The notes under the pieces are model-generated. The model was not told the origin of the DNA. It saw only the letters and a list, made by a program, of their open reading frames with translations, and searched no databases. A stretch of DNA of 64,000 nucleotides from Nannocystis sp. RBIL2 (GTDB taxonomy: Bacteria > Myxococcota_A > Polyangia > Nannocystales > Nannocystaceae), in NCBI RefSeq assembly GCF_026626745.1, contig NZ_JAPNJW010000002.1, positions 1,126,151 through 1,190,150 of the forward strand. The letters are read 5' to 3'. Positions 18,741-41,521 of this stretch are shown here, piece by piece (the first letter of the stretch is position 1; each line of letters starts with the position of its first letter). The position numbers and the translations under genes were made by a program.

Positions 18741-20123
18741 CTACTCGCCGGCGGCGGTGTTATCGCCGACGTCTCCAGGCTTCGGCGCGCGGCGCGACCA
18801 CAGCCAGTAGACAGGCACACCGGACAGCACGATGGCGCAGTCGACGACGAATTCCCGCGGCTGCGACAGCGCGTAGTTGCCGAGCAGGAACACGGAGGCG
18901 GCCAGGAACAGCAGCGGCACCCACGGGTAGCCGAACGTCCGGTACGGCCGCGGCAGGTCGGGGCGCGTGCGCCGCAGGACGAACACTGCGGCCACGCTGA
19001 GGGCGTAGAACGGCCAGATCCCGATCACGAATTGCCCCGCCAGCTCGGCGAAGCTGCGCACCGAGACGAACACGATCCCCAGCGCGGCGCCGAGGACGAT
19101 GCTGGCCGAGGGGGTGCCGTGGCGCGGGTGGACCTCGGCCAGGCGGCGGAAGAACAGCCGGTCCTCCGCCATGGCGTAGAACACCCGCGGCCCGGTCATC
19201 ATCGAGCCGTTGAGAGTGCCGAAGGTGCTGACCATGACGGCCGCGGCCACGAGAGTGGTGCCGAGCGAGCCGATCAGGGCGGCGGCGACATCGGCGGCGA
19301 CCAGCGGGGCGCCAGCCATCTGCTCCAGCGGGATGACCCGCAGGTACACGAGGTTGGCCGCGAGGTAGAGCGCGACGACCGCAGCGGTCCCGAGGATGAA
19401 CACCCGCGGGAGCGCGCGCTGCGGATCGCGGACCTCGCCGCTCACGAAGCCGACGTCGCACCAGCCGTCGTAGGCCCAGAGGATGGCGACCATCGCCAGG
19501 ACGAACGCCCCGTCGGCCGCCGGCGCAGCGGTCGCAGGCACCGGCGCCGTCGCCTCCGGGGCCAGCAGGAGGCCGAGCGCGACCAGGCCGAGCAGCGCCG
19601 CGACCTTCAGCGCGGTGCTGACGTTCTGCACGAGCGCCCCGAACTCGACGCCGCGGCGGTTGACCGCGGCGACCGTGGCGATCATCGCCACCGCCACCAC
19701 CTGGGCCCGCGACAGCGGTCCGAGCACCGGCGGCGCTCCGTCGACGCCGAACGTGCGCAGCAGGTACTCGGCCGAGGTCACCGCGATCGCGCCGTACGCA
19801 GCCGGGCGCAGGATGAGCAGCTCGGCCCAGCCGAACAGGAAGGCCGGCAGCTTGCCGAACGCCTCGCGCAGGTAGACGTAGATGCCGCCGCTACGCGGAT
19901 AGAGGATGGCCAGCTCGGCGACGGTCAGTGCGCCGGCGAGGGCGACCACGCCGCCGGCGACCCACGCGAGGACGAACAGGGTCAGGTCGTCGATGTGGCC
20001 GGCGATCTCCGCCGGGGTCCGGAAGATGCCGCTGCCGATCGTCGACCCGACCAGCACCGCGACGGTGCTGGCGAGGCCGAGCTTGCGAGGCAGCCGCTCG
20101 CCCCAGGGGTCAGGGGCCTGCAT
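18741..20123 (-). CDS. APC-family amino acid permease
   Basis: About 12 TM segments. N-terminal signature GLASTVAVLVGSTIGSGIFRTPAEIAG. ATG at 20123. Confidence 0.8.
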   Translation of the reverse strand: MQAPDPWGERLPRKLGLASTVAVLVGSTIGSGIFRTPAEIAGHIDDLTLFVLAWVAGGVVALAGALTVAELAILYPRSGGIYVYLREAFGKLPAFLFGWAELLILRPAAYGAIAVTSAEYLLRTFGVDGAPPVLGPLSRAQVVAVAMIATVAAVNRRGVEFGALVQNVSTALKVAALLGLVALGLLLAPEATAPVPATAAPAADGAFVLAMVAILWAYDGWCDVGFVSGEVRDPQRALPRVFILGTAAVVALYLAANLVYLRVIPLEQMAGAPLVAADVAAALIGSLGTTLVAAAVMVSTFGTLNGSMMTGPRVFYAMAEDRLFFRRLAEVHPRHGTPSASIVLGAALGIVFVSVRSFAELAGQFVIGIWPFYALSVAAVFVLRRTRPDLPRPYRTFGYPWVPLLFLAASVFLLGNYALSQPREFVVDCAIVLSGVPVYWLWSRRAPKPGDVGDNTAAGE

Positions 20124-20800
20124 GGGCGACTGATAGCGCAGTTCGCAGCGGCGCAGAAGTTCCTCGCGGGGGCCTCTGCGGGCGTGCAGGCGCGTTCGCG
20201 GATTAGCTGGCTCTCGGGTCATGTCGCGGGACGAGCCGGGCTCGCGGCGAGCATCTGCCGCCCTGGCTCTTGGCCTCGCTGTGATGAAGCGCCGGAGTCG
20301 GGTGGCATGGCCTGGGGTCGAGCGCGTTCGCGCGGCGCGTGAAAGTGTCTATTCGGACATGTCTCCGGCACCGTGACGCTGGGCCACCTCACGCGCGCCG
20401 ACCGCCGATTAGAGAACGAGGCTATCTATATTAGGAGGCAGCACCTGTTCGCCTCGGTTCGAACTCCGTCGCCCCGGACCTCGATACCCGCGCGTTCAGC
20501 ACCGCCTCGATGGCCGCGCGTCCACCACTCGTGTTCGCCCGCGGGTGATGGCTCGCGCGACGACCGCCGAGTGAGACAGCTCGGAGAAAGGCGCGACTGC
20601 TCCCTCTCGCCAGCCGCCAACGACGACGGCGACATCGGCCACATCGACGATGACGAACAGGCCGCCGGCATCTCGCACGGCGCGTCACGACGCCCGCTCC
20701 GTCGCCCTGCCCTCGCCCATCGCACGCCACTCGTGTTCGTCGGCACCCAGCGAGAAAGCGCCGAAGGCCCGGCGTGCGCCGGGCCTCCTGGACTTCGAGA

Positions 20801-20824
20801 CAGGCTGTCCTTCGGGACAGCCTC
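20801..20824. terminator. GC hairpin GGCTGTCC-TTCG-GGACAGCC (UUCG tetraloop)
   Basis: Perfect 8-bp stem with a 4-nt loop just 3' of the FHA gene stop. It belongs to the GGACA/TGTCC palindrome family and has no U-tract. Confidence 0.4.
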
Positions 20825-20829
20825 GCCGA

Positions 20830-22935
20830 TCAACCCGGCTCGAGGACGAACGGGTACGAGACGATGACCGAGCCGCCGCCCTCCGGCTTGGGGAAGGTCC
20901 AGCGCTTGACCGCCTGGGCGATGCAGGAGCCGACCGCCGGGTCCTTCATCGTGCTCTCCTGGACCACCGCGGTGGGCACCTTGCCGGTGCCGCCGATGGT
21001 GAACTGGACGGCGACGCGGCCCTTGGCGTTGGGGTCGCGGGCGAGGGCCTGGTTGTAGCAGTAGCGGACCTCGTTGATGTGCGCGCGGACGATGCGGCGG
21101 ATGATGTCCTTGTCGAGCGCGCCCTGGACCTCGGCCTTGGCCTGACGGACCGTCGGGACGCGGGTGCCGCGGCCGCCGAAGCCGGCGCCAGCGCCACGGC
21201 CGTAGCCGGAGCCCGTGCCGCCGCCGCCGCCCTTGCCGATGAGGCCCGTGTTGCCGAGGCCGATCGTGCCCTCGCCGGTGCCACCGCCGCCGCGGCCGGT
21301 GCCGACCAGGCCGAGGCCGCCGACGCCGTACGCCTCGCCGACCTCCGTGCCGGTGAGGCCGCCCCACACGTCCGCGTCGTCGTTGCCGACCGCGAACGCG
21401 CCGCCGTACGGCGAGGCGAGGAAGTGGCCGCTCTCGGCGCTCATCACCCCGAGGATGCCGGCCTGGCGCGCGGCCATGTCGGGGTCGAAGTTACGGGCCA
21501 TCTGCGGGATGGCGTCCTTGGGGCCCTTCATGGCGTAGAGGCCCGACTTGCTCTTCGAGGTGGGCTTGCCCATCTTGCCCTCCTCGCCCTTGTGGCGCTG
21601 ACCGGTGCCGCCGGCCTCGTCGTCGGAGTTCTCCATGTCCTCCGGCGGCGGCTCCTCCTCCTCCGGCGGCTTGTCGGGCTGGTTGAGGTAACCGACGAAG
21701 CGGTTCTCTTCCATCATCTCGTCGAGGCTGAGGTTGCCGGCCTCGTTGGGGATCAGGTGCGTGAGCACCAGCAAGCTGCCGATGACCACGAACGACGCGC
21801 CGTTGTAGATCCAGAACGGCTTGTCGGTCTCGCTGCCGCCCTTGATCACCGCGCCCGGCGCGACCGAGTTCACGTAGAAGGTGACGTCCTGGTACTTGAC
21901 CCGCGCCGTCGCTCCGGGCGGCAGCGGGAAGCTGAACGACGAGCCCTGCGAGCCCGCGCGGCCGGTCGCTACCAGCTGCTGCAGCGTGATCGTCTGGCCG
22001 TCGAAGGTGACCTCGCCGCTCATGTTCTGCGTGAAGTTGAGCGCGAACTCGTGGTCGCTGCCGCGGACCAGCGGGAAGCCGTTGGGCTCGGGCAGGCCGG
22101 CGGGCGGCACGTGGAACGACGCGCCGTGGCCCTCGCCGATCGTGAAGTTCTTGTTGACGTAGTCGCCGGTGCGGATGAGGCCCATGCTGAACGGCACGAG
22201 GCCCGCGATCGCCAGCAGCATGCCGATCGCCGCCAGGCCGTTTCCGGGCGGGGTCGGGCGCGGCGTGCCCTGCTCGATCGAGTCCTGGACCTTCTTGCCG
22301 TAGCCGGCCCAGTCCTGGTTCACGTCGCTGAAGAACACGCCCACGCCGGCGACCAGCATCACGCCGCCGATGGCGAGGAAAATGGGCGCCTGCGACTTGC
22401 GGTTCTTCAGCTGGCCGACGTGCTGCACGTCGAGCACCGTCGAGCCGTACATCGCCACGACCTCGGCCACCCGCGAGCCGCTCTGAACCTCGACCTCGCT
22501 GAGGTCGATCTGGATCGGGGCCCGCGTCGCCATCGGCGCCGCAGCGAGCGGAGCCGCCGCGACCGCGGCCGCCGCCACGGCCACCGGCGCGGCCACCTGC
22601 GCCGGCGCCGGCGCAGCCGCGACCTGCTGCTTGGCGAAGCCGACCTCGAGGCGGTACGGCCCGAAGTTCAAGGCGTCACCGTCGTGCAGCACCGCGTTCT
22701 TGTCGATCCGCTGGCCGTTGAGCACGGTGCCCGCCGCGCTCCCGAGATCGATCACCCGCACCTCTTCGCCGGACACCTCGATCACGGCGTGCATGCGGGC
22801 CACGGCCTCGTCATCCAGACAGATGTGGCTACTCTTCAGTTTTCCGATCTTGATAACGTCTTGCGTCAGCGTCTGCGTATCGACGAGCTGATCGCCGTAA
22901 AACACTTTGATGGCGAGCGTCTTGGTCGTTGTCAT
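20830..22935 (-). CDS. FHA-domain membrane protein with Gly-rich region and AgmX/PglI-type TonB_C-like C-terminal domain (PglI-like)
   Basis: N-terminal FHA domain (KIGKLKSSHICLDDEAVARMHAVIEVSGEEVRVIDLGSAAGTVLNGQRI), a TM segment, an acidic Pro-rich linker, and a (GxGxG)n stretch. The C-terminus (IIRRIVRAHINEVRYCYNQALARDPNAKGRVAVQFTIGGTGKV…) resembles the AgmX/PglI/TonB_C fold. Confidence 0.75.
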   Translation of the reverse strand: MTTTKTLAIKVFYGDQLVDTQTLTQDVIKIGKLKSSHICLDDEAVARMHAVIEVSGEEVRVIDLGSAAGTVLNGQRIDKNAVLHDGDALNFGPYRLEVGFAKQQVAAAPAPAQVAAPVAVAAAAVAAAPLAAAPMATRAPIQIDLSEVEVQSGSRVAEVVAMYGSTVLDVQHVGQLKNRKSQAPIFLAIGGVMLVAGVGVFFSDVNQDWAGYGKKVQDSIEQGTPRPTPPGNGLAAIGMLLAIAGLVPFSMGLIRTGDYVNKNFTIGEGHGASFHVPPAGLPEPNGFPLVRGSDHEFALNFTQNMSGEVTFDGQTITLQQLVATGRAGSQGSSFSFPLPPGATARVKYQDVTFYVNSVAPGAVIKGGSETDKPFWIYNGASFVVIGSLLVLTHLIPNEAGNLSLDEMMEENRFVGYLNQPDKPPEEEEPPPEDMENSDDEAGGTGQRHKGEEGKMGKPTSKSKSGLYAMKGPKDAIPQMARNFDPDMAARQAGILGVMSAESGHFLASPYGGAFAVGNDDADVWGGLTGTEVGEAYGVGGLGLVGTGRGGGGTGEGTIGLGNTGLIGKGGGGGTGSGYGRGAGAGFGGRGTRVPTVRQAKAEVQGALDKDIIRRIVRAHINEVRYCYNQALARDPNAKGRVAVQFTIGGTGKVPTAVVQESTMKDPAVGSCIAQAVKRWTFPKPEGGGSVIVSYPFVLEPG

Positions 22936-23204
22936 CGTCCTTGCCCCGGTCGTGTGGCGCCTCGGACACGGCCTTTTGGGGCTTGTTCCCGAGGCCCGCG
23001 AGCTTTTTTCGCGCCCGCGCGGGGCGTCTGCGCCGGCGCACGTCCGCGCGCGGACTCGGGCTTCGGGCGCGCCCCTGCGTCCGGCCACGCGTCCGCGGCT
23101 CGCGGCCGGCCGCGGCGGCTTCGTGATACCGTGACCCGAGGCGCCGTCCGTGCCCGGATCCGGGCGAGGCGCGCCTGCTGCCCCTCTCACGCCCTCGCCC
23201 CGGC

Positions 23205-23711
23205 ATGACCTCCGACCTCGCGCCCCCCTCACCTCCCGGCCCGAGCCCGATCCTCACCCTCCGGATCAGCGTCCGCGGGCTATATGACAGCTGGACGCAC
23301 TGCCAGCGGCTGGCCGATTACATCGCGCGCTTCGTCGCCTCCGATCGCTTCGATCCCGAGCAGCTGACCACGCGCCTCTCGACCTATCTCAACGAGGTGC
23401 TCGAGTACGTGTTCCGCGCCCGGCCGAGCGAGGGCGAGATCGTGGTCGAGGTCGGGCGCACGGACGAGCACGTGATCGCCGAGCTGACGATACCGACCGA
23501 CGAGGCGCTCGCGCAGCGGCTGCGCGACGACCTCGGGCGGGTCGCGCCGGCGGACGCGCGCGCGCGCTACGAGGCCGAGTTCGAGTCGATGATCCTGCGT
23601 CCGCCGGCCGAGGTCGGGCTGCTCGAATTGGTCGCGCTCCACGGCGTCGAGCTCACGCTGCGCGAGGGCGACGGCGCCGGCGTCATCGTCCTTACTGTCC
23701 CGCACGAGTGA
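23205..23711 (+). CDS. RsbW-like (GHKL/HATPase_c-fold) putative anti-sigma/serine-kinase homolog, paralog 1
   Basis: Alignable to the 27302..27865 protein. The motifs are degenerate (…YLNEVLEYVFRA…GEIVVEVGRTDEHVIAELTIPTD…). It is the first gene of the operon. Confidence 0.45.
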   Translation: MTSDLAPPSPPGPSPILTLRISVRGLYDSWTHCQRLADYIARFVASDRFDPEQLTTRLSTYLNEVLEYVFRARPSEGEIVVEVGRTDEHVIAELTIPTDEALAQRLRDDLGRVAPADARARYEAEFESMILRPPAEVGLLELVALHGVELTLREGDGAGVIVLTVPHE

Positions 23712-23723
23712 GCCGAGCTGGGT

Positions 23724-24896
23724 ATGGAGAACGAGCAACCGTTTTCGATCCGCTTCAGCGAGAACGACCAGGAGGTCGCGCTCGAGGGGACGCTGCGGCC
23801 CGCCGGCCCCGAGGCGTTCGCGCCGGTGCGGGCGCGCCTCGACCACGCCGCCGACGCCGTGCGCGGCGTCCTCTACCTCAACTTCAAGCGCCTGCGTTAC
23901 CTCAACCACACCGGCTTCCTCGAGCTCGCGCGCTTCATCGCCGCCTGCGCCGAGCGCCACCCGAGCCTCAAGCTCAAGCTCGTCGTCTCGAGCGTCGTCC
24001 CGTGGGCGCCGCTGCGCTTCGGCTTCCTCGGCGCGCAGTTCGGCAACACCATCGTCGAGCAGTACGACAAGGCGTTTTACCCCGGCCAGGGCGTCATCGA
24101 GAACGACCAGCTCGTGCCGGTCCTGCGCACCCAGACCAACATCGTGTGGTCGCACGAGCGCGAGCTGCTGCGCCGCCACGGCCTCGGCAAGCGCATGCGG
24201 ATCGCCGACATCTGCTGCGGGATCGGCGACTTCGCGGTGCTCGTCTACAAGGAGTTCGAGCCCGCGTACATCGTCGGCGTCGACCACTCGCGGCCCTTCC
24301 TTCAATACGCGCAGCAGATGGCCCGCGAGTTCGGCATCACCGACATCGAGTATCAGTTCGGCGACGCGACCCACCTGTTCTTGCCGTCGAACAGCTTCGA
24401 CTTCGTCACCTCGCGCCTGGCGCTGCAGATCTTCAACGATCCGTCGAGCATCTTGCGCGAGCTGGTGCGGATCTGTAAACCCGGCGGTCGGGTCTACCTG
24501 ACCAACGAGATGACGGTGCACAACTACGGCTACCCGCGCCACGAGTCGGTCGCGTGGACCTACCAGCACGCCGTGAAGATCGCCCAGAGCCTCGGCATGG
24601 ACATGAACTTCGGGCCCAAGATGTTCTCGCTGCTGACCGACATGGGCTTCGAGGACGTGCGCATGGAGCAGATCCCGATCACCAACAACAACACCGCGAT
24701 CGACGACTTCGCGCGGGTGATCGAGAGCTGGGAGGAGTACGTCACCGGCGAGCTGTCGACCGCCACGCAGCAGCCGCCGGAGGTGGTCGAGCGCCTGCGC
24801 ATGGGCTTCCGCGATCACGTCTACGCGATCCGCAGCCGCCGCGGCTTCGCCACCTGGCCGATCTACGTCGCCTCCGGCCGCAAACCGGAGCGCTGA
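23724..24896 (+). CDS. STAS (anti-sigma-antagonist-like) domain fused to class I SAM-dependent methyltransferase
   Basis: The N-terminal ~110 aa has the STAS topology, with YLNHTGFLEL replacing the canonical DSSG phospho-motif. The C-terminus has the MTase motif I (DICCGIGDF), ICKPGGRVYL and a Rossmann-like fold. Confidence 0.7.
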   Translation: MENEQPFSIRFSENDQEVALEGTLRPAGPEAFAPVRARLDHAADAVRGVLYLNFKRLRYLNHTGFLELARFIAACAERHPSLKLKLVVSSVVPWAPLRFGFLGAQFGNTIVEQYDKAFYPGQGVIENDQLVPVLRTQTNIVWSHERELLRRHGLGKRMRIADICCGIGDFAVLVYKEFEPAYIVGVDHSRPFLQYAQQMAREFGITDIEYQFGDATHLFLPSNSFDFVTSRLALQIFNDPSSILRELVRICKPGGRVYLTNEMTVHNYGYPRHESVAWTYQHAVKIAQSLGMDMNFGPKMFSLLTDMGFEDVRMEQIPITNNNTAIDDFARVIESWEEYVTGELSTATQQPPEVVERLRMGFRDHVYAIRSRRGFATWPIYVASGRKPER

Positions 24897-24917
24897 CGGC
24901 CCTCGCCGCTCGACCGC

Positions 24918-27278
24918 ATGGCCACCACGGGCTCAAGGTTCCGCACCAAGTTCGTCCTCGTCGCCGGGGTCGGGCTGGTGATCGGGCTGACGCTCGCGGC
25001 GCTGGCCTCGCTGAAGGGCATCCGCGTGCTCGGCGGCGACGCGTCGGAGGAGATCCGCAAGGGCCTCGAGCGGGCCAGCCGCGAGTACCTCACCAACCAC
25101 ATCGAGGACACCGCGCAGCGCGTCGAATTCCTGCGCGGGCGGGCGCGGGCCGAGCTCGGCGTGCTCGCGGCAGTCACCCAGACGCTCATCGATCGGCAGG
25201 CCGACCTTGCGCCGCTGACCGCCGCCGCCGCTGCTGCCGGGCCGCTGCGCGACGCCCTCGTCTATGACCCGCGCGGCGACTGGTCGCAGACCGAGGCCGG
25301 TGAGCCGTCGGCGGTGGCAGTGTGGGGCTACCTGCACGCGCCGGCCGACCCGAAGCAACCTGGCCTTCGGGACATCAAGCCCGAGGTCCGCGCCGCAGTC
25401 GAGCAGACCGCCCTGCTCGACCTGCTGCTGCCCGCGCTGCTGCAGTACGGGGCCGAGAAGCAGGCCATGTACTTCATCGGCCCCGAGGGCGCCGAGTACC
25501 TGCGGATCGCCCCTTACGCCGACGCTGCGGGCCACGCCGACCAGCTCTATCCCGGCCACAACAAGAGCCCGTTCTGGAGCTTCTACTTCCCCGGCATCGT
25601 CGACGGCTGGCGGCGCTGGCTCCCCGATCCCGCGCGCATGCGCGACCCGGCGGCGCAGGTCACCGGCACCGCGCCGTACACCGACGCGGGCGGCAGCGGG
25701 GCCATCATGACCATGTTCCAGCCGCTGTGGGACGCCTCGCGCGCGCGCTTCGCCGGGGCCGTCGGCGTCGACGTCACCCTCGGTCAATTGATCCGCTACG
25801 TCCAGGACCTCGAGCTCGCCGGCTCGGGCTTCGCCTTCCTCGCCCAGGAGAACGGCAACGTGTTCGCCGTCAACGCCGACGGCCAGGAGATCCTCGGCCT
25901 GCAGCAGGCCAGCGGCTCGTCGGGTGCCGGCGTCGACATCTTCCAACAGTTCCTGCACCAGTCGCGCGACCCGGCGATCCAGGCGCTCGCGCTGCCCAGC
26001 GGCGATACCGTCGACTACCGCGACCCGGTAGCGATCGGCGGCAAGGACTACGTCGTCGTGCTCAAGCGGCTCGATCCGTTCAACGTCTGGTCGGGTTCGA
26101 CCGACATCGTGCCGGAGCGCTGGACCCTCGGCTTCGTCGTGCCTGCCGCCGAGATCTACGCCTCGCTGCACAAGGCGCAGGACACCATCGCCGCCAGCAG
26201 CCGCGGGATCCTCGTCAGCCAGATCGTCATCACTCTGGTCGCGCTCGCGGTCGTGATGTTCGGGATCCTCCTGGTCTCGCGACGCATGACCGGCGCGCTG
26301 GTCGACCTCGCCGCGGGCGCCGGCAAGATCGCGCAGAAGGACTACGACGTGCGGGTCGACGTGCGCAGCGACGACGAGTTCGGCGCGCTCGGCCGCGCCT
26401 TCAACCAGATGGCCGCCGAGATCCGCGCGTATACGCACGATCTCGAGCGGCTGGTCGAGCAGCGCACCGCCGAGCTGCAGCGGGCCTCCCGCGAGATCAT
26501 GGCGCTCAACGAGCGGCTCAAGCAGGAGAACCTGCGCCTCGGCGCCGAGCTCGACGTCGCCCGCCGGCTGCAGCTCATGGTGCTGCCGCAAGAGCGCGAG
26601 CTGGCCGAGCTCGAGGGCCTGGACGTCGCCGGCTACATGCGGCCCGCGGACGAGGTCGGCGGCGACTACTACGACGTCCTGCGCGCCGGCGACGGCGTCA
26701 AGATCGGCATCGGCGACGTCACTGGCCACGGCCTCGAGAGCGGCGTGCTGATGCTGATGATCCAGACGGCCGTGCGCACCCTGCAGGCCGCCGAGGAGCG
26801 CGACGCGGAGCGCTTCCTCAACATCGTCAACAAGGTCCTCTATCAGAACATCCAGCGCGTCGGCCTCGACCGCACCGCGACGCTGGTGCTCCTCGACTAC
26901 GCGCAGGGCGTGCTCCGCCTCACCGGACAGCACGAGGAGGCGGTGGTGGTCCGGCGGGGCGGCTCGATCGAGCGCATCGACACGGTCGACCTCGGCATGC
27001 CGGTGGGGCTCGAGGTCGACATCGCCGCGTTCATCGCCCGCACCGAGCTGCGCCTGTCGCCGGGCGATGTCGTCGTCCTGTACACTGACGGCATAACCGA
27101 GGCGGAGGACATCCACGGCGAGCTGTACGGCATCGACCGCCTGTGCGAGGTGGTGCGCCGGGTCCACGAGCGGCCGGCGGCGGAGATCAAGCAGGCGATC
27201 GTCGACGACGTCATGCGCTTCATCGGCGCGCAGAAGGTCTTCGACGACATCACGACGGTGGTGATCAAGCGGCGCTGA
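24918..27278 (+). CDS. membrane sensor PP2C (SpoIIE/RsbU-type) Ser/Thr phosphatase with periplasmic sensor domain and HAMP
   Basis: TM1 near residues 12-32, a ~400-aa periplasmic domain, TM2 (ILVSQIVITLVALAVVMFGILLV), a HAMP domain (…DEFGALGRAFNQMAAEI), a coiled coil, and a PPM domain (GGDYYDV…GDVTGHGLESG…YTDGITEA). Confidence 0.85.
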   Translation: MATTGSRFRTKFVLVAGVGLVIGLTLAALASLKGIRVLGGDASEEIRKGLERASREYLTNHIEDTAQRVEFLRGRARAELGVLAAVTQTLIDRQADLAPLTAAAAAAGPLRDALVYDPRGDWSQTEAGEPSAVAVWGYLHAPADPKQPGLRDIKPEVRAAVEQTALLDLLLPALLQYGAEKQAMYFIGPEGAEYLRIAPYADAAGHADQLYPGHNKSPFWSFYFPGIVDGWRRWLPDPARMRDPAAQVTGTAPYTDAGGSGAIMTMFQPLWDASRARFAGAVGVDVTLGQLIRYVQDLELAGSGFAFLAQENGNVFAVNADGQEILGLQQASGSSGAGVDIFQQFLHQSRDPAIQALALPSGDTVDYRDPVAIGGKDYVVVLKRLDPFNVWSGSTDIVPERWTLGFVVPAAEIYASLHKAQDTIAASSRGILVSQIVITLVALAVVMFGILLVSRRMTGALVDLAAGAGKIAQKDYDVRVDVRSDDEFGALGRAFNQMAAEIRAYTHDLERLVEQRTAELQRASREIMALNERLKQENLRLGAELDVARRLQLMVLPQERELAELEGLDVAGYMRPADEVGGDYYDVLRAGDGVKIGIGDVTGHGLESGVLMLMIQTAVRTLQAAEERDAERFLNIVNKVLYQNIQRVGLDRTATLVLLDYAQGVLRLTGQHEEAVVVRRGGSIERIDTVDLGMPVGLEVDIAAFIARTELRLSPGDVVVLYTDGITEAEDIHGELYGIDRLCEVVRRVHERPAAEIKQAIVDDVMRFIGAQKVFDDITTVVIKRR

Positions 27279-27301
27279 GGCGCTCTAGGCGGACGGAGAG
27301 T

Positions 27302-27865
27302 ATGGACGGCATCATCGGCGAGTACAAAGAGCCCACCGACGCTGGACCGCGCGTCATGCTGACGTTTTACCCCGGGGCGTTCCCGGTCAAGTGGAACCAG
27401 TGCAGCGTGGCGGCCGACTTCTTCGCCGAGTACTTCGCCGACGTCGGCGAGGGCGGGCTCACCGAGGAGGCCGAGCGGCGCGACTTCGTCGGCAGCGTCG
27501 GCTACGTGCTCAACGAGCTGATCGAGAACGCGGTCAAGTTCTGCGCCGGCGGCACCGTCGTCATCGACGCGGGCGTCGAGGCGGGCGAGTTCGTGGTCGT
27601 CGTCAGCAACCAGGTCTGCGGCGACGCGGTCGACGGCCTGCGTATCAAGTTCGCCGAGCTGCTCGACGGCGATCCCGCCGAGCTCCTGATGCAGCGGGTC
27701 GAGGAGAACGCCGCCAACCCCGAACTCACGACCTCGGGCCTGGGCTTTCTCACCATGCTGTCGGACTACAAGGCCCGGCTCGGCTGGCGCTTCGACCCCG
27801 CCCCTGGCAATCCTGACAACGCGCTCCTCAAGACCGCCGCCCGGCTACAGGTGAAATCGTCATGA
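27302..27865 (+). CDS. RsbW-like GHKL-fold serine kinase/anti-sigma-like protein, paralog 2
   Basis: N-box (VLNELIENAVKF), a G1-like motif (NQVCGDAVDG) and a G2-like motif (TSGLGFL). The stop overlaps the start of the next gene by 4 nt. Confidence 0.6.
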   Translation: MDGIIGEYKEPTDAGPRVMLTFYPGAFPVKWNQCSVAADFFAEYFADVGEGGLTEEAERRDFVGSVGYVLNELIENAVKFCAGGTVVIDAGVEAGEFVVVVSNQVCGDAVDGLRIKFAELLDGDPAELLMQRVEENAANPELTTSGLGFLTMLSDYKARLGWRFDPAPGNPDNALLKTAARLQVKSS

Positions 27866-28236
27866 CGGACACAACTACGCGACCCTCCGGGTCGGACACC
27901 GACATCAAAGGCCCCGGCTATCGCGTGTGGTTCGACGCGCCCGCGCGCACGGTCCACTTCGAGGGCGTGCTCCGCCTCAGCACCAGCGAGTACAAGCCGA
28001 TCGAGGACCTGCTCGACCGCGTCCTGCTGGCCAACCCCGCGCTCGCCCTGCGCATGACCGAGCTGCAGTTCCTCAACAGCTCGGGCATCAACATGCTCTA
28101 CAAGTTCGCCATCGCCGCGCGCAAGAAGGGCGAGACCGAGATCAAGGTCCACGGCTCGTCGACCATCCCGTGGCAGGGCAAGTCGCTGCCCAACCTCAAG
28201 AAGTTCCTGCCGACGATCGTCATCGCCCTCGACTGA
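27862..28236 (+). CDS. STAS-domain anti-sigma-factor-antagonist-like protein
   Basis: FLNSSGINMLYKF matches the STAS phospho-serine motif F-x-D/N-S-S-G. It is ~124 aa and homologous to the N-terminus of the 23724 protein. Confidence 0.7.
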   Translation: MTDTTTRPSGSDTDIKGPGYRVWFDAPARTVHFEGVLRLSTSEYKPIEDLLDRVLLANPALALRMTELQFLNSSGINMLYKFAIAARKKGETEIKVHGSSTIPWQGKSLPNLKKFLPTIVIALD

Positions 28237-28249
28237 GCCGGCCGCCCGC

Positions 28250-29476
28250 ATGCTCACGGATGACCCGCGCTGGCGGCGAGCCCTCGCCGACCCCGACGCC
28301 GCGGCCGAGCTCCTGGCCGACCCGGCCGCGCGCGCCGAGTTCATGGCCGCCGTCGCCACCCTGCAGGCCGAGCACGACGACCTCGTGCTGCTGCACGACT
28401 CGACGCTCGAGCACGCCAACGAGATCGAGGAGCAGCTGGCAGTCAAGATCGAGCAAGTCGAGGCGCTGGTGGTCGAGCTCGAGCTGCGCAACACCTTCAT
28501 CCGCCAGGTGTTCGGCCGCCACGTCACCGACGAGGTCGTCAATACGTTGCTCGCCTCGCCGGAGGGCCGCCAGCTCGGCGGCGAGCGGCGCACCCTGACG
28601 ATCCTGATCTCCGACCTGCGCGGCTTCTCGACCCTCTGCGAGGGCCTGGGCCCCGAGCAGGTGGTGGCGATCCTCAACATCTACCTCGGCGCCATGGCCG
28701 ACGTGATCGGCGAGTACCGCGGCTCGATCAACGAGTTCATCGGCGACGCCATCCTCGCGGTGTTCGGCGCCCCGGTGCCGCAGGAGGACCACCCCGAGCG
28801 CGCGGTCGCCTGTGCGATCGCCATGCAGCGGGCGATGGGCCGCGTCAACGCCGCGCTGGCCGAGCACGGCCTGCCCGCGCTCGAGATGGGCATCGGCGTC
28901 CACACCGGCGAGGTCGTGGTCGGCAACATCGGCTCGAACCGCCGCGCCAAGTACGGCGTGGTCGGCCGCCACGTCAACCTGACGTCGCGCATCGAGAGCT
29001 ACACCGTCGGCGGCCAGGTCCTGATCTCCGAGTCGGCCGCGCGGGCCCTCGGCGACCGCCTCCGCACCCGCGGCTGCTTCGAGGTCCGGCCCAAGGGCGT
29101 GCGCGAGCCGATCACGATCCACGACGTCACCGGCGTCGACGGCCCGTTCGCCATCCACATGATCGAAGAGGCCGCCGCGTGGCGGGTCCTGGCCGAGCCG
29201 CAGCCGCTCGTGTTCACCGCGCTCGAGGGCAAGGACACCGGCGGCCAGGAGTTCCCGGCGCTGCTCGTGGCCCACGACGAGCGCCACAACGCCGAGCTGC
29301 GGGTCGCCGCCCCGCTGCCGCTGCGCGCCGACCTCAAGCTCGTGCTCGCCGCCCTGCCCGGCGTCGACGCCTACGCCAAGGTCGTCGCCGCCGGCCCGGG
29401 CCGCGCGGTGGTCCGCTTCACCGCCCTGCCCCGCGCGCTGCAAGAGCTGCTCGACTCCCTGCCCGCGCGCGAGTGA
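28250..29476 (+). CDS. class III adenylyl/guanylyl cyclase (CHD) with N-terminal coiled coil and C-terminal unknown domain
   Basis: Cyclase motifs RTLTILISDLRGFSTL, FIGDAILAVFGAP, GIGVHTGEVVVGNIGS and KYGVVGRHVNLTSRIES. Confidence 0.85.
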   Translation: MLTDDPRWRRALADPDAAAELLADPAARAEFMAAVATLQAEHDDLVLLHDSTLEHANEIEEQLAVKIEQVEALVVELELRNTFIRQVFGRHVTDEVVNTLLASPEGRQLGGERRTLTILISDLRGFSTLCEGLGPEQVVAILNIYLGAMADVIGEYRGSINEFIGDAILAVFGAPVPQEDHPERAVACAIAMQRAMGRVNAALAEHGLPALEMGIGVHTGEVVVGNIGSNRRAKYGVVGRHVNLTSRIESYTVGGQVLISESAARALGDRLRTRGCFEVRPKGVREPITIHDVTGVDGPFAIHMIEEAAAWRVLAEPQPLVFTALEGKDTGGQEFPALLVAHDERHNAELRVAAPLPLRADLKLVLAALPGVDAYAKVVAAGPGRAVVRFTALPRALQELLDSLPARE

Positions 29477-29494
29477 AGCGCCGACGGGAAGTCC

Positions 29495-29565
29495 CCGAGG
29501 ACATGTCGCCTCGGACATGTCCCGGAAGACCTTTCCCGCAGAGCATGCCCCTTCGGACATGCCCT
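29495..29565. repeat. 14/28-bp phased array of GACATG(T/C)C half-sites in convergent gap
   Basis: CATG occurs at 29502, 29516, 29544 and 29558 (spacings 14, 28, 14): ggacatgtcgcc, cggacatgtccc, gcatgcccc, ggacatgccc. Confidence 0.8.
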
Positions 29566-29573
29566 TTCGACCA

Positions 29574-31085
29574 TCAGTCGCGGCGGGCCAGCAGCGTCGC
29601 GTGCATGTCGCTGCCGTCGAGGCTCTCGTCGAGCGGCTCGTCGATGTCGATGATCACGCTCTCGCCGCCCGAGCTCGTCGGCGGCGGGATCGGCGGGACC
29701 GAGCGCGGCGCCACCGAGCCCGGCGGGGCCTCGACGGGGGCGCTCCGCGACCCGCGACCCTCGACGCCGGCGAAGCGGGCCGCCAGGGTGCGCACGAACG
29801 CGCCCATCCACGGCTTCATCGACGTCAGCTCCTCCTCGATCAGGTCGCTGGTGATCTTGGTGAGCGTCGCGTCCTCGACCACCAGCACGCTGGCGGTCCG
29901 GCGCGAGGCGGCGAAGATCGAAGTCTCGCCGAACACGTCGCCCGGCCCGAGCCAGCGCAGCGACACGTGGTGCCCCGCCTCAAGCTTGTAGACCTCGAGC
30001 CTGCCGGCCAGCACGATGTAGGCCGCGTCGCCGATCTCACCCTCGCGGATCACGTGGTCGCCGGCGGCGAAGCGGACCGTCTGGAAGCTGCCGCTGCCGC
30101 GCAGCAGGCGGACGATGTCGGCCTGCAGCGCCGCCACGCTCGGGTAGCGATCCTCGGGATCGCGGCGCAGCGCCCGGGTCACGATGCGCACCAGCTCGCG
30201 CGGGAACGGCACCGCGACGTGGCTGTCGGGCGGGGCGAACTTCGCCTCGCGCGCGAGGATCAGCGCGTCCATCGCCGTGCGCGCCTGGTACGGCGGCCGC
30301 CCGACCATCATCTCGTAGAGCAGCGCCCCCATCGAGAACACGTCGGCGCGCTCGTCGAGCGGATGGCTGTTGGCCTGCTCCGGCGACATGTACGACGGCG
30401 TGCCGAACACCAGCCCGTCGGTCTCCGACGGCGGCAGCGGCGGCAGGGCGTCACGGACCCACCGCGCCTCGTCCTCGGCGGAGCGCAGCGGCAGGATCTG
30501 GGCCCCGCCCCAGTCCATCAGATAGACCTGGCCGTAGGCGCCGACCATCACGTTGGCCGACTTGATGTCGCAGTGGATCACCCCGCGGCTGTGGGCGAAC
30601 GACAGCGCGTCGCACACCTTGACGAAGATCTCGAGGCGGTGGAACAGCCGCTCGTGGTCGGTCGCCGGCTCGCCGCCGATCAGCGCCTTCAAGCTCTGGC
30701 CCTCGACCAACTTCATCGTGAAGTAGAGCTGGCCCTGCTCGTCGCGCCCGAGCTCGTGGATCGGCACGATGTTGGGGTGGTCGAGCTGACCGGTCACCTG
30801 GGCCTCGCGCAAGAACCCGTGCACGAGGATCAGGTGGTCGTAGGTCTTGGCGTGCATGGTCTTGGCGGCCATCCGCCGCTGCAGCACCTCGTCGAACGCG
30901 AGCCGCACCGAGCCCATCCCGCCGCGCGCCAGCTCGTCGCCGAACGACAGCCGCGGCACCTGGTCCGGCAGCGCCGCGCGGATGAGGGCCTCGAGCCGCT
31001 CCTCATAGGAGAGCGGGGAGTCGCGGTCGAACAGCCGCTCGAGCGCGGCGCTGGGGGGCGAGCCTCCGGGGCGGCGACCTGGCAT
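29574..31085 (-). CDS. Hanks-type Ser/Thr protein kinase with C-terminal cyclic-nucleotide-binding (cNMP) domain
   Basis: Kinase subdomains (GGMGSVRLA, AAK, HCDIKSANV, DWG, SPE). The C-terminus has a CAP-type cNMP-binding domain (FAAGDHVIREGEIGDAAYIVLAGRLEV…GPGDVFGETS). The probable start is the ATG at 31085. Confidence 0.85.
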   Translation of the reverse strand: MPGRRPGGSPPSAALERLFDRDSPLSYEERLEALIRAALPDQVPRLSFGDELARGGMGSVRLAFDEVLQRRMAAKTMHAKTYDHLILVHGFLREAQVTGQLDHPNIVPIHELGRDEQGQLYFTMKLVEGQSLKALIGGEPATDHERLFHRLEIFVKVCDALSFAHSRGVIHCDIKSANVMVGAYGQVYLMDWGGAQILPLRSAEDEARWVRDALPPLPPSETDGLVFGTPSYMSPEQANSHPLDERADVFSMGALLYEMMVGRPPYQARTAMDALILAREAKFAPPDSHVAVPFPRELVRIVTRALRRDPEDRYPSVAALQADIVRLLRGSGSFQTVRFAAGDHVIREGEIGDAAYIVLAGRLEVYKLEAGHHVSLRWLGPGDVFGETSIFAASRRTASVLVVEDATLTKITSDLIEEELTSMKPWMGAFVRTLAARFAGVEGRGSRSAPVEAPPGSVAPRSVPPIPPPTSSGGESVIIDIDEPLDESLDGSDMHATLLARRD

Positions 31086-31137
31086 GCGGGGCCACGATAC
31101 AATGGCGCCTCGGCGGTGGTACACCGGGACGGCCGGC

Positions 31138-32292
31138 ATGGACCTGCGCACTGCCCTCGTCACGCTCCGCCTGCGCCACCCGTTCGGCCTGTCGCGCGGC
31201 ACCGTGAGCGAACTGCCGAGCTTGCTCGTGCGCCTTGACCCGGGCGACCCGGACGGCGCCGCAGCGGACGGCCCCGATCGCCGCGGCCTCGGCGAGGCCT
31301 CGCCCGTGCGCTACCTCGGTCAGTCGGCGATCGCCGCCGCGCCTCTGGCCACAGCGATCGCGGCCGAGCTGTCCCCCGAGATCCTCGCCGACCCGCGCGC
31401 GATCGCGGCCGCCGGCCCGCGCATGCGCGAGCTCGCCCCCGATCACTCCGCGGCCCGCTGCGCCGTCGACACCGCCCTGTGGGACGCGGCCGCGCGCGCC
31501 CGCGGCCGCTCGCTGGCCGAGCTGCTGGCCGACCCCGACGTGCTCGATCGGGCAGGTCTCGATCGCCATGTCCTTTCGGCCACCTCGGGGGCGACCGTCA
31601 CCTCTTACACGATCGCGCTCGACGAGCTCCCGGCGATGGCGGCCCGCGCGGCCGCGGCCGCGCACCTCCCGGTGCTCAAGATCAAGCTCGGCAAGGGCCG
31701 CGAATTCGACCGCAAGGCCGTGCGTGCGATCGCCGCCGCCGCCCCGAACGCCCGCCTGCGGGTCGACGCCAACGGCGGCTGGACCCCGGACGACGTGCGC
31801 GACCTGCTCCCGCTGCTGATCGACCTCGGGGTCGAGCAGCTCGAGCAGCCGCTGCCTGCGGGTCGGCCCGACCTCCTCGCGGCGCTCGCGCGCGACTGCC
31901 CCCTGCCGATCTACGCCGACGAGGACGTGCAGGGCCCGGACGACGTGGCGGCGCTGCGGGGCCGGGTCGCGGGCATCAACGTCAAGCTGATGAAGTGCGG
32001 CGGGATCTCGCCGGCCCTGGCGACGATCGCCGCAGCCCGGGAAAACGGCCTGCGGGTGCTCGTCGGCTGCATGATCGAGACCCGCGTCGGGCTCGCCGCC
32101 GGCGCCGCCCTGGCCCGCCTCGCCGACGAGGCCGACCTCGACGCCCACATGCTCACGCGGGCCGACCCGATGCCGCCGGGGAGTCAAGAGCGGCTCGCGC
32201 CCGACCTGCCGCGGCTTTGCGGCCCCGGCCTCGGCGTCCCGCCCGGGGCGTTGCCCGCGGACGGCGACCCGGGGCCCGGGCGCGTGGCATAA
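31138..32292 (+). CDS. enolase-superfamily dipeptide epimerase (L-Ala-D/L-Glu epimerase-like)
   Basis: MR/MLE-family metal ligands (KIKLG…RVDANGGW…EQP…ADE…KLMKCGG). Divergent from the kinase. Confidence 0.7.
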   Translation: MDLRTALVTLRLRHPFGLSRGTVSELPSLLVRLDPGDPDGAAADGPDRRGLGEASPVRYLGQSAIAAAPLATAIAAELSPEILADPRAIAAAGPRMRELAPDHSAARCAVDTALWDAAARARGRSLAELLADPDVLDRAGLDRHVLSATSGATVTSYTIALDELPAMAARAAAAAHLPVLKIKLGKGREFDRKAVRAIAAAAPNARLRVDANGGWTPDDVRDLLPLLIDLGVEQLEQPLPAGRPDLLAALARDCPLPIYADEDVQGPDDVAALRGRVAGINVKLMKCGGISPALATIAAARENGLRVLVGCMIETRVGLAAGAALARLADEADLDAHMLTRADPMPPGSQERLAPDLPRLCGPGLGVPPGALPADGDPGPGRVA

Positions 32293-32305
32293 TCCACGCT
32301 CCACC

Positions 32306-35300
32306 TTGAATCCCGACGAGCCCCAGGCCCGCGCCTCGCTGCCGGTGACGCCACCTGTCCCTGAGGACATCCTTCCGCGTCCGCTCGGCCGCTACGAGCT
32401 GGTGCGTCGGGTCGGCTCCGGCAGCATGGGCGTCGTCTACGCCGCGCTCGATCGCGACAGCGGCCGCACCATCGCGGTCAAGACCCTGCACCAGCTCGAC
32501 CCGGGCGCGCTGTTCCGCCTCAAGAACGAGTTCCGCAGCGCCGCCGGCCTGTCGCACCCCAACCTCGTCAGCCTCCACCAGCTCGTCTCGCACGACGACG
32601 AGTGGTTCATCACCATGGAGTTCGTCGACGGCGTCAGCTTCGTCGACCATGTCCGTCAGGGCATGTCCGAAAAGCCAGGCGCTGCGCCGCCGCCGGAGCG
32701 CCTGCGCCCGGCCCTGCTGCAGCTAGCCGCCGGCGTCAGCGCCCTGCACGCCGCCGGCAAGCTGCACCGCGACCTCAAGTCGTCGAACGTGCTGGTGACC
32801 GCCGATGGCCGCGTCGTCATCCTCGACTTCGGCCTCGCCGCCGACGACGTCGCCGAGGGCGGCGAGGACGGCCTGCTCGGCACGCCGGCGACGATGGCGC
32901 CGGAGCAGGCCGCCGGCAACCCGGCCTCGCCCGCGAGCGACTGGTACGCGATCGGCGTCATGCTCTACGAGGCGCTCACCGGCCGCCTGCCGTTCACCGG
33001 CCCGCCGCTCGCGATCCTCCACGCCAAGCAGCACGAAGATCCGGCCCCGCCGCAGGCGCTCGTGCCCGACGTCGATCCGGAGCTGGCGACCCTGTGCGTG
33101 GGCCTGCTGCAGCGCGACCCGGCCGCGCGGCTCGGCGGCGCCGACATCCGCGAGGCCCTCGGCGAGGCCCCGCTCGGCCCCACCGAGTCGGGCGCGCGCT
33201 TCGTCGGCCGCGACGACCTGCTGTCGGCGATGCGCGACGCCTTCCAGCTCGCGCTCGCCGGCTCGCCGGTGTGCGTGTACGTCCGCGGCCGCTCCGGCAT
33301 CGGCAAGACCGCGCTCATCGATCGCTTCATCGCCGAGCTGCGCCGCAACGACCGCGCCTTCGTCCTCCAGGGCCGCTGCTACGAGCGCGAGAGCGTGCCG
33401 TACAAGGCCTTCGACAGCGTCCTCGACGCGCTCGCGCAGCACCTCCGCCACCTCCCGCAGGAGGAGGCCGCGGCCCTGCTGCCGCGCGAGATCCACGAGC
33501 TCACGCGGCTGTTCCCCGTCCTCGCGCGCGCCCCCGTGGTCGCCGATCTGCCGCAGCGCAACTTCGTCGCCCCCGACCCGCAAGAGGCACGGCGTCGGGC
33601 CTTCCGCGGGCTCAAGGAGCTGCTGGCGCGGATCGCCGATCGCCGCCCCCTGGTGCTGCGGATCGCCGATCTCCAGTGGGGCGACGAGGACAGCGCGCGC
33701 CTGCTCGCCGAGCTGCTGTCGCCGCCCGATCCGCCGGCGATGCTCTTCATCGGCTCGTACCGCATCGACGAGGACGACGCGCCGATGCTCCGCGAGCTGC
33801 GGCGGCTCGGCGCGCGGCCCGAGCTCAAGGCTCTGGTGCGCGACCTGCTGGTCGAGCCGCTCTCGCCCGATCAGGCCGAGGAGCTCGCGCTGGCCCGGCT
33901 CGGCCGTGACAGCGACAGCGCCCGCGCCGAGGCGCGCCGGATCGCCGCCGAGTCGGGCGGCAACCCGCTGTTCGTCGAGGAGCTCGCGCGCCACATCGCC
34001 GGTCACCGCGGCGCCGCGCCGGCCGAGGTCTCGCTCGACGCGGTCGTGCGCACTCGCCTCGCCGGCCTGCGCGCCGCGGGTCGCAGCCTGCTCGAGATCG
34101 TCGCCATCGCCGGGCGGCCGATCCCGCCGAGCCTCGCGTTCACGGCCTCGGGCGTCACCGATCGCTCGGTCCTCGGCGAGCTGCAGGCGCAGCACCTGCT
34201 GCGCACTCTGGCCTCGCGCAGCGGCGACACCGTCGAGTGCTATCACGACCGGATCCGCGACACCGTGCTGGCGCAGCTCGACGGCGAGCGCCAGGCGCAG
34301 CTGCACCGCACCCTCGCCGACGCGCTCGCGCAGTCGGCCGACGACCCCGAGCTGCTGGCGCACCACCTCCACGCCGCCGGCGCCTTGAAGGAGGCGCACG
34401 CCGCCGCCGTCGCCGCCGCCGAGCGGGCCGCCGCCGCGCTCGCGTTCTACCGCGCCGCCCAGCTGTACGGCCGCGCCCTCGCGTGGGCGCCCGACCTCCC
34501 GGACGACGAGCGCCGCGCCCTCCTCCGCCGTCGCGCCGACGCGCTCGCGCTGGCCGGTCGCAGCGCCGAGGCGGCCCCGGTCTACGCCAGCGCCGCCGAG
34601 GGCGCCTCGCCGGCCGAATCACTCGAGCTGCGCCGCCGCGCCGGCGAGCAGTTCCTCGTCAGCGGCAACATCGACCAGGGCGTGCGGATGCTGCGCCCCG
34701 CGCTGGTCGAGGTCGACCTCGGCTACCCGGCCACGCCGGGCCGCGCCAACATGTCGATCATCACCCGCTCCACGCAGCTCAGCTTGCGCGGGCTCGGCTT
34801 CGCCGCGGTGCGCGAGGAGCAGGTCCCGCCGGCCGATCTGCTGCGCCTCGACGTGTGCCTGTCGGCGGCCGTCGGCCTCGCCTTCGTCGATCCGATCCGC
34901 GGCTACAGCTTCTACCAGCGCGGCCTCCTCCTGGCCCTTCAGACAGGTGAGCCGCAGCGCATCGCCCGCGCGCTCGCCGGCGTCGGCGCCATGATCATGA
35001 GCCGCGGCACCGCCAACGCCGTCAGCCGCGGCACCACCCTGCTCAAGGAGGCGCGCCGCCTCGCCGAACAGATCTCGGAGCCGCGCCTCATCGGCCTGTG
35101 CGAGATCGTCGACGCCATCGCCGCCGTCTCGCTCGGCCGCTGGCGCCGCGCGCTCGAGCACTGCGAGCAGGGCGCCCAGATCCTGCTCGACCGCTGCGTC
35201 GGCGTCGGCTGGGAGCTCGACCTCGCCCGCATGAGCACGATGCGCGGCCTGTTCATGCTCGGCGAGCTGGCCGAGCTCGGCCACCGCGCCCACGCCTGGC

Positions 35301-40095: not shown

Positions 40096-40111
40096 GCCCG
40101 CGAGGATAGCC

Positions 40112-41434: not shown

Positions 41435-41521
41435 CGTGGGGGGACGCGATGATCGGGCCCGGCCCCGCGAAAAACCAGTCCCCTCCCGCGTGCGCTTGCG
41501 TGATTCTGCGCGGCTTCGCGC

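Follow-up and report, generated by a model that had tools for sequence, protein, structure and literature searches.

Partner switching is usually taught as the release of a sigma factor. Direct control of an enzyme by partner switching has been shown in few systems, SiaABCD of Pseudomonas aeruginosa (PMC7278518) and HenR/All4160 of Anabaena PCC 7120 (PMC13555669). Here, we describe a six-gene operon in a 64,000-nucleotide stretch of DNA from Nannocystis sp. RBIL2 (contig NZ_JAPNJW010000002.1; the whole stretch is called the window below), for which SiaABCD is the closest described system (PMC7278518, PMC7647112, PMC8457831). Both combine a membrane HAMP-PP2C phosphatase, a small GHKL-type kinase (a predicted one in Nannocystis), a small switch protein and a nucleotide cyclase in one operon that lacks a sigma factor, and in SiaABCD the unphosphorylated switch protein SiaC activates an enzyme, acting on the stalk of SiaD (PMC7278518, PMC8457831). 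In HenR/All4160, a PP2C phosphatase and kinases control a STAS domain that forms one protein with a glycosyltransferase (PMC13555669), a precedent for a partner-switch-like module that acts directly on an enzyme. The original prediction for this operon, made by a model from the sequence alone, had known of no described pathway of such composition; this was too strong, since the logic is known from SiaABCD (PMC7278518) and the fusion of STAS to an enzyme from HenR/All4160 (PMC13555669). Our analysis indicates that the locus is a novel variant of SiaABCD-like signalling logic, in which a pair that looks catalytically live is combined with a pair that looks dead and with a STAS-methyltransferase fusion.

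Two further systems serve as references. The Bacillus switches SpoIIE-SpoIIAA-SpoIIAB and RsbU-RsbV-RsbW combine a PP2C phosphatase with a GHKL anti-sigma kinase and a STAS antagonist whose acceptor is of the DSSG type, three activities that are also predicted for the set described here. Slr1658 and Slr1659 of Synechocystis sp. PCC 6803 (NF047703, NF052618, NF047705) give their names to the superfamilies to which one of our pairs belongs. The only functional data for this family (Zer et al. 2018, via PMC7555055 and PMC6525291) come from an slr1658 mutant, which shows an iron-starvation recovery phenotype and over-expression of pgr5.

We number the operon genes g1 to g6 and the convergent neighbour g7, and refer to g1 with the N-terminus of g2 as pair 1 and to g4 with g5 as pair 2:

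23205–23711, plus strand: g1, 168 residues, GHKL-fold protein, a degenerate slr1658-family paralogue and predicted pseudokinase (a binder without kinase activity)
23724–24896, plus strand: g2, 390 residues, slr1659-like (STAS-like) domain fused to an S-adenosylmethionine (SAM) methyltransferase
24918–27278, plus strand: g3, 786 residues, membrane sensor phosphatase with dCache-like, HAMP and PP2C domains
27302–27865, plus strand: g4, 187 residues, slr1658-superfamily GHKL protein, predicted active Ser kinase
27862–28236, plus strand: g5, 124 residues, slr1659-superfamily STAS-like switch protein, predicted phospho-acceptor Ser73
28250–29476, plus strand: g6, 408 residues, soluble Cya2-type class III nucleotidyl cyclase, predicted guanylyl cyclase
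29574–31139, minus strand: g7, Ser/Thr protein kinase with a C-terminal cyclic-nucleotide-binding domain (start uncertain, 31139 or 31085)

The six open reading frames (ORFs) of the operon and their tight packing, as originally predicted, were confirmed: consecutive genes are separated by 12, 21, 23 and 13 nt, except that g4 and g5 overlap by 4 nt (ATGA). In all six, third-position GC content (GC3) is 0.92–0.98, the pattern expected of real genes in a 70% GC genome (the window has ~70% GC). The ATG start of g4 at 27302 is backed by the N-termini of its homologues, and the protein is 99% identical to its counterpart in Nannocystis pusilla Na p29 and 94–95% identical to those in three other Nannocystis species. 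Over the window, identity to N. pusilla is ~99%.

Judged by its motifs, pair 2 looks catalytically live. g4 and g5 score 143.6 and 125.2 bits against the NCBIfam models slr1658_superfam (NF047703) and slr1659_superfam (NF047705), both with a cut-off of 100, and are members of these superfamilies; the cyanobacterial loci that we examined differ from ours in having no g1, no STAS-methyltransferase and no cyclase. Pfam searches recovered the Methyltransf_11/25, SpoIIE, HAMP and Guanylate_cyc domains proposed originally, but Pfam is nearly blank for g1, g4, g5 and the N-terminus of g2 (no match at E ≤ 0.01 for g1, g5 or the g2 N-terminus; at E ≤ 5, g5 matched STAS alone, weakly, E 0.013), and we therefore examined the folds by structure prediction. 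The AlphaFold2 model of g4 (predicted local distance difference test, pLDDT, 90.2) has SpoIIAB, UsfX and RsbW as its top Foldseek matches in the PDB (E 5e-5 to 2e-3), which assigns g4 at model level to the anti-sigma-kinase GHKL fold; its ATP-binding motifs are intact, and it is a predicted kinase. Among 72 homologues, N71, E72, E75, N76 and K79 of the N-box are invariant, the SGLG of the G2 box is kept in at least 96% and D124 in 97%. The acceptor loop NSSG of g5 is similarly conserved over 73 homologues (N72, S73 and G75 100%, S74 97%). Profile searches of the PDB with the g5 family gave weak matches, the best being the anti-sigma antagonists RsfB (E 0.0026) and SpoIIAA (E 0.009–0.012), and FLNSSG of g5 lines up with the phospho-serine loop FMDSSG of SpoIIAA (weak matches, E 0.0016–0.03). 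In this search, the STAS matches became no sharper when the g5 and g2 N-terminal families were merged, and neither the g4 nor the g1 family returned anything significant. By fold for g4 and by sequence for g5, the closest matches are proteins of the Bacillus-type switches, from which the locus nevertheless differs: it has no sigma factor, does not reach the Pfam HATPase_c and STAS thresholds, and has outputs that appear to be enzymes.

The phosphatase g3 is, by its domain matches, a sensor with two transmembrane (TM) segments, a dCache-like domain on the outside, HAMP and a PP2C domain whose motifs are intact. Pfam identifies SpoIIE (E 1.6e-39, 189 of 192 profile positions), HAMP (E 4e-13) and, weakly, dCache_1, and the layout runs from TM1 (~8–39) through a ~385-residue dCache-like outside domain to TM2 (~424–462), HAMP, a coiled coil and the SpoIIE-type PP2C. 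The PP2C motifs GGDYYD (581), GDVTGHG (599), YTDGITE (722) and FDDIT (775) are present and conserved over 81 homologues. The partner-switching kit of kinase, STAS-like antagonist and PP2C membrane sensor phosphatase that had been proposed is supported. g3 also matches the SiaA model (NF038263) in its C-terminal half only (116.3 bits against a cut-off of 700), a partial likeness to SiaABCD that adds to SiaB being the best match of the g1 model. The family cut-offs are otherwise missed as well: g4 scores 23.3 bits against the 85 set for SiaB (NF038262), and g1 has no hit. In addition, SiaC is a DUF1987 protein with Thr68 whereas g5 is STAS-like with a predicted Ser acceptor, SiaD is a GGDEF diguanylate cyclase with a stalk whereas the cyclase here is of class III (Cya2-type), and the pseudokinase and STAS-methyltransferase of pair 1 are extra.

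In pair 1, g1 has lost the Mg-ATP Asn and the G2 box and g2 the acceptor Ser, which makes the pair look like a pseudokinase and a STAS-like domain that is no longer phosphorylatable. The AlphaFold2 model of g1 (pLDDT 88.4), built on a shallow alignment of 35 sequences that all come from the Nannocystis clade, has an anti-sigma-kinase-type GHKL fold, with SiaB from the SiaB-SiaC complex as its best Foldseek PDB match (6KKO_A, E 9e-5, TM-score 0.58), followed by SpoIIAB, UsfX and RsbW. g1 keeps N63, E64 and E67; across 77 homologues, the position aligned with the Mg-ATP Asn of the N-box is never Asn (V36, A15, L10, Y5, I5, T4, S1, M1), and the G2 box is absent. g2 consists of the slr1659-like domain (residues ~1–115), a conserved linker, DxxFYPGQ, and a class I SAM methyltransferase (~128–390; Pfam Methyltransf_11/25 at residues 128–265, Methyltransf_11 E 3.8e-19). 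The position of the acceptor Ser is occupied by N (63), H (15), F (3), S (3) or A (1) in 85 homologues, such that Ser is replaced in 82, while SAM motif I (D162, G166, G168) is 98–100% conserved. The substrate of the methyltransferase is not inferable from LahSB (E 6e-17), its closest solved relative, which covers the SAM-binding core only. This arrangement departs from that of All4160, whose own STAS domain receives the phosphate; the STAS-like domain of g2 lacks the acceptor Ser, and a STAS-like protein predicted to be phosphorylatable is encoded separately.

At profile level, g1 and the g2 N-terminus are old paralogues of g4 and g5: hhalign aligns g1 with the g4 family at a probability of 98.3% (E 1.7e-14, 150 columns) and the g2 N-terminus with the g5 family at 98.5% (E 1.9e-15, 108 columns). 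The ~140-residue alignment originally reported between the products of the genes at 23205 and 27302 is recovered at this level; pairwise, BLASTP aligns 84 residues of the g1 and g4 proteins with 21% identity (E 3e-4). The duplication of the pairs and the GHKL fold of both small proteins therefore stand, but not two functional pairs, with g1 lacking the N-box Asn and the G2 box and g2 the acceptor Ser. The slr1658/slr1659 assignment likewise holds for pair 2 alone, as g1 (34.8 bits) and the g2 N-terminus (42.9 bits) fall below the superfamily cut-off of 100 and, by this criterion, count as remote paralogues outside the superfamilies. The g1 family is a rare one; a set of 1.84 billion proteins contains 166 representatives. 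Two g1 homologues on Rhizobium and Sinorhizobium meliloti plasmids (L093 6474–6980 and L094 4963–5481; L numbers denote our loci) are publicly labelled 'ubiquinone biosynthesis methyltransferase UbiE'; this label is almost certainly wrong, since those proteins join the g1 family (hhalign probability 100%, E 1.3e-40).

The conserved unit is g1–g5, and g6 is a lineage-specific addition in Nannocystis. For conservation counts we used the best 80 of at least 558 genome loci, chosen by encoding a g4 relative. The genes g1–g5 occur in the same order and orientation in 70 of them, distributed over four phyla, and g2–g5 in 5 more, and the STAS-like domain is fused to the methyltransferase in every cassette. 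A cyclase follows g5 in the Nannocystis clade only, in 5/80 genome loci as well as in the metagenomic loci L001 and L002. Gene neighbourhoods thus bear out conservation of a cassette, and the six-gene unit of the original prediction shrinks to five. Its hosts are Nannocystaceae, Sorangium, Polyangium, many Phyllobacteriaceae and Rhizobiaceae, Ancylobacter and Labrys, together with one Chthoniobacteraceae metagenome-assembled genome (MAG; Verrucomicrobiota) and one Desulfobacterales MAG. The cassette lies on Rhizobium plasmids and on S. meliloti pSymB, where in strain 1021 (NC_003078.1, 458672–466675; also L094) a GGDEF/EAL gene precedes the complete five genes. A GGDEF-EAL gene is found directly upstream and co-directional in 41 alphaproteobacterial loci, at the opposite end from the Nannocystis cyclase. 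Sorangium has an extra soluble PP2C and a PAS-GAF-STAS protein downstream, and Cyanobacteria have a PP2C and the slr1658/1659 pair only, with a dCache-HAMP-PP2C protein beside the pair in L006. Across Nannocystis species the locus is syntenic, flanking FHA gene included. A literature search that excluded most subscription journals did not find the combination of live pair, dead pair and STAS-methyltransferase; as weak evidence within the same limits, it found nothing on the cassette via slr1659 or the guessed S. meliloti tags SMb20447-52.

The absence of a sigma factor, also part of the original prediction, extends beyond the operon. No Sigma70-family or other sigma gene was present among the GC3-supported ORFs scanned at 9–45 kb of the window or in nine Pfam-annotated neighbourhoods of related loci, and a probe for extracytoplasmic function (ECF) sigma factors, whose limited sensitivity would miss distant sigma families, detected nothing near the cassette in 78/80 loci.

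g6 closely resembles Cya2 of Synechocystis (PDB 2W01, E 2e-69); Guanylate_cyc (E 5e-26) is the only Pfam family matched. The eight catalytic and specificity residues tabulated for Cya2 (PMC6005667), D448, R450, E488, D492, G562, N569, R573 and K608, are all identical in g6 (D122, R124, E162, D166, G236, N243, R247 and K282), at a constant offset of 326. Among them, D122 and D166 correspond to the metal-binding Asp residues, N243 and R247 to the Asn and Arg of the transition state, and E162 and G236 to the nucleobase pair. In Cya2, a Glu-Gly pair specifies GTP, and E488K turns the enzyme into an adenylyl cyclase (PMC6005667, PMC5995499). Since g6 carries this pair, its product is more likely to be cyclic GMP (cGMP) than cyclic AMP (cAMP), and g6 is on these residues more likely a guanylyl than an adenylyl cyclase; the adenylyl cyclase of the original prediction is probably wrong. 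The pair is kept in the g6 orthologues of L001, L002, L009–L013 and L089–L091, and L041 has Asp for Glu. The architecture comprises an N-terminal helical region, a cyclase-transducer element (FGRH at 88), a catalytic core (~109–300) and ~100 C-terminal residues. Cya2 shares the transducer element and a C-terminal extension, but it is a membrane protein with a CHASE2 sensor, whereas g6 is soluble, sensorless and placed behind a partner-switch cassette. The closest multi-domain relatives of g6 have a receiver domain where g6, which has no sensor domain, has only a helix, suggesting that g6 needs a regulator acting in trans. The C-terminal domain (~306–408) is conserved and without a Pfam match; the extension of Cya2 is also uncharacterised. 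A PilZ-like identity had been suspected for it from one relative that carries PF07238; no Pfam support was found.

The product of g6 has a likely candidate receptor in g7, to judge by its domains. This convergent gene, overlooked in the original prediction, encodes a protein with Pfam matches to Pkinase (E 3.6e-37) and cNMP_binding (E 9.7e-18), the kinase motifs AAK (112), HCDIKSAN (210), DWG (230) and SPE (273), and a phosphate-binding cassette, FGE...RRTASV (424–439). A convergent cyclic nucleotide (cNMP)-binding kinase is present wherever a cyclase follows the five-gene cassette: g7 orthologues adjoin g6 orthologues convergently in L001, L002 and L009–L013, and on the same strand, with 52–55% identity, in L089 and L090, where no slr1658/1659 pair is encoded. 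Because the orthologues adjoin even where the cassette is absent, cyclase and kinase appear, from gene linkage, to be a functional pair in their own right. To our knowledge, little work has addressed cGMP signalling or cNMP-dependent Ser/Thr kinases in bacteria, and our search, within the limits given above, found nothing specific on such kinases in myxobacteria.

Class III cyclases are linked to an slr1658/1659-like pair and a PP2C in four arrangements: the window with L009–L013, a second cluster in L001, L041 and L091. L041 has a g6 orthologue (53% identity) directly upstream of g1, and in L091 a g6 orthologue (49%) is followed by SpoIIE, ThiF, an unknown gene and a g4-like/g5-like pair. The second, divergent cluster of L001 (2326–6919, minus strand), a metagenomic Nannocystis relative, lies beside the main cassette and encodes, with weak family matches, a GRAS-family (methyltransferase-like) protein, an unknown protein of 177 residues, a soluble SpoIIE, slr1658-like (171 residues) and slr1659-like (135 residues) proteins and a class III cyclase with the unusual specificity residues Thr/Asp. 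This composition resembles a parallel design of methyltransferase, PP2C, pair and cyclase.

Together, these data lead us to favour, with somewhat better than even confidence, an operon made of a five-gene signalling cassette and an acquired Cya2-type cyclase, whose output is enzymatic (methylation and a nucleotide second messenger) and involves no sigma factor. By analogy with SpoIIE/SpoIIAA/SpoIIAB and SiaABCD, g4 would phosphorylate g5 at Ser73. On sensing an extracytoplasmic signal, g3 would activate its PP2C domain and dephosphorylate g5, and unphosphorylated g5 could then swap partners. The pseudokinase g1 may act as an anti-sigma-like holder without a sigma factor, gripping g2 via its non-phosphorylatable STAS-like domain, and free g5 would compete for g1 (or g4), thereby switching the methyltransferase; that the fusion is strict in every cassette is our reason for counting the methyltransferase as part of the switch. 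In Nannocystis, free g5, or a g4/g1 complex, might also act on the N-terminal helical and transducer region of g6, as SiaC does on the SiaD stalk, and the raised cGMP would be read by g7; in Alphaproteobacteria, a GGDEF-EAL enzyme would stand in the cyclase's place. The more detailed version, a widespread but rare split switch in which the dead GHKL paralogue sequesters the STAS-methyltransferase and the phosphorylatable STAS-like protein, whose state depends on the live kinase and the periplasmic-sensing PP2C, frees it, plugged into a guanylyl cyclase and a cGMP-dependent (PKG-like) kinase in Nannocystis and into GGDEF-EAL in rhizobia, is put forward tentatively, as one possibility. If true, the cassette would contribute a conserved combination of a live and a dead pair, hinting at how an anti-sigma-like binder can be reused without a sigma factor, a methyltransferase as a partner-switch output, and a modular connection between one sensor and more than one second messenger (in Nannocystis probably cGMP, in rhizobia cyclic di-GMP). 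The presence of the cassette on S. meliloti pSymB makes the model directly testable in a genetically tractable organism.

Several points weigh against the cassette-with-cyclase reading and lend weight to other explanations. Domain identities, motif states and gene linkages are observed, and from them we infer all contacts and activities; for g5 and the g2 N-terminus, the evidence for a STAS fold consists of weak sequence matches (E 0.002–0.03). A protein that has lost the N-box Asn is expected to lack kinase activity but may still bind nucleotides. Moreover, g2 in the window has Thr63 beside the lost Ser (NHTG), as do 24/85 homologues with Thr there, and, with SiaC being phosphorylated on Thr, phosphorylation of g2 may occur. 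Such an acceptor would suit two functional kinase/antagonist pairs working in parallel, with methyltransferase and adenylyl cyclase as fixed outputs of one six-gene system, a scheme that could also draw on the GHKL fold of both small proteins, the homology of both STAS-like domains and the tight packing of the six genes. We nonetheless consider it very unlikely, given that all 77 g1 homologues have the Mg-ATP Asn replaced and the G2 box gone, that 82/85 g2 homologues have replaced the acceptor Ser, that a cyclase follows the cassette in only 5/80 genome loci, and that this cyclase has the guanylyl-cyclase Glu-Gly pair. A transcriptional output is indicated, at least in Synechocystis, by the ~1000-fold change of the pgr5 transcript on loss of slr1658 (PMC6525291, PMC7555055), and in two divergent Polyangia MAGs (L018 and L020) an ECF sigma gene lies directly upstream of g1. 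Both would fit a classical anti-sigma/anti-anti-sigma module that controls a sigma factor or another transcription regulator encoded at a different site and does not target the methyltransferase and cyclase directly, and anti-sigma factors are indeed the nearest likeness of g4 and g1. Against this stand the lack of a sigma gene in the window at 9–45 kb, in the annotated neighbourhoods and, within the sensitivity of the ECF probe, in 78/80 loci, and the strict STAS-like/methyltransferase fusion. The cassettes of L018 and L020 are without g3; their ECF sigma gene has a SnoaL_2 extension (L018 6628–7938), and an 1818-residue Pkinase-AAA_16-GAF-SpoIIE protein is encoded downstream (L018 11450–16906). 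This is the only variant with a sigma gene nearby, and its restriction to L018 and L020 makes the sigma factor the exception rather than the rule; we regard a sigma factor encoded elsewhere as unlikely.

The cyclase itself poses a separate question. It is missing from the cassettes of most lineages and occurs with g7 but without a cassette in L089 and L090, and may be an independent module that is merely co-transcribed here. The ligand of g7 may be cGMP or cAMP: the Thr of its phosphate-binding cassette (RRTASV) is found in cAMP-preferring domains too, and the L089 orthologue has Ser at this position. The distribution of the cyclase would be accommodated if g6 and g7 formed an independent cGMP/cAMP module beside the cassette in Nannocystis, co-expressed with the switch and free of post-translational control by it. 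This seems rather doubtful to us in view of the 13-nt gap between g5 and g6, the transducer element of a cyclase that has no sensor domain of its own, and the recurrent linkage of the same cyclase type to PP2C and slr1658/1659-like pairs in L041 and L091, with another cyclase in the second cluster of L001. Matches of g6 to PADLOC PycC models (best E 1.7e-28) and of g7 to PD-T4-6 kinase models could point to a Pycsar-like anti-phage system of cyclase and cNMP-binding kinase triggered by the partner switch. The PADLOC matches are generic and at domain level, however, all specificity residues of g6 are those of a purine (GTP) cyclase, the candidate effector is a Ser/Thr kinase and not of a known type (TM or TIR), and the synteny across Nannocystis species, FHA gene included, speaks against a variable island, all of which makes such a defence role highly improbable.

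The regions bordering the operon contain the following elements:

22936–23204, between the minus-strand FHA/TonB_C-like gene and g1: divergent intergenic region, presumed promoter region of the operon
29477–29573, between g6 and g7: convergent spacer with hairpins and five tandem units of 14 nt, where both transcripts probably end; putative terminator

No sigma-70-like promoter was found in a promoter scan, and the terminator-like matches in the same scan were just three minus-strand intragenic sites, not above chance. Rfam gave no match at E ≤ 0.1 over 20000–32500, and no riboswitch was detected there. The 97-nt spacer between g6 and g7 has an RNA fold of -69.4 kcal/mol (z = -6.0) and contains a perfect 9-bp inverted repeat (29499–29507/29514–29522) and 14-nt periodic units with the core (G)GACATG(T/C)C. 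CATG cores at 14-nt spacing are also present in this spacer in four other Nannocystis species, while the intervening sequence varies. The spacer may serve as a terminator for both directions or as a series of sites bound by protein.

Upstream, the operon is flanked by the divergent FHA/TonB_C-like gene (20830–22935, minus strand; FHA E 2e-16). Beyond g7, the plus strand encodes an enolase-superfamily (MR_MLE) protein (31084–32292) and a 1228-residue Pkinase-AAA_16 protein (32306–35992); with the latter, g7 and the upstream FHA protein, the neighbourhood is rich in genes for Ser/Thr phospho-signalling. Further downstream (37736–41521, minus strand), a radical SAM/SPASM gene (39049–40305) lies between an unannotated ORF of 484 residues and an MFS transporter gene, a region that may be a peptide-modification cluster unrelated to the operon.

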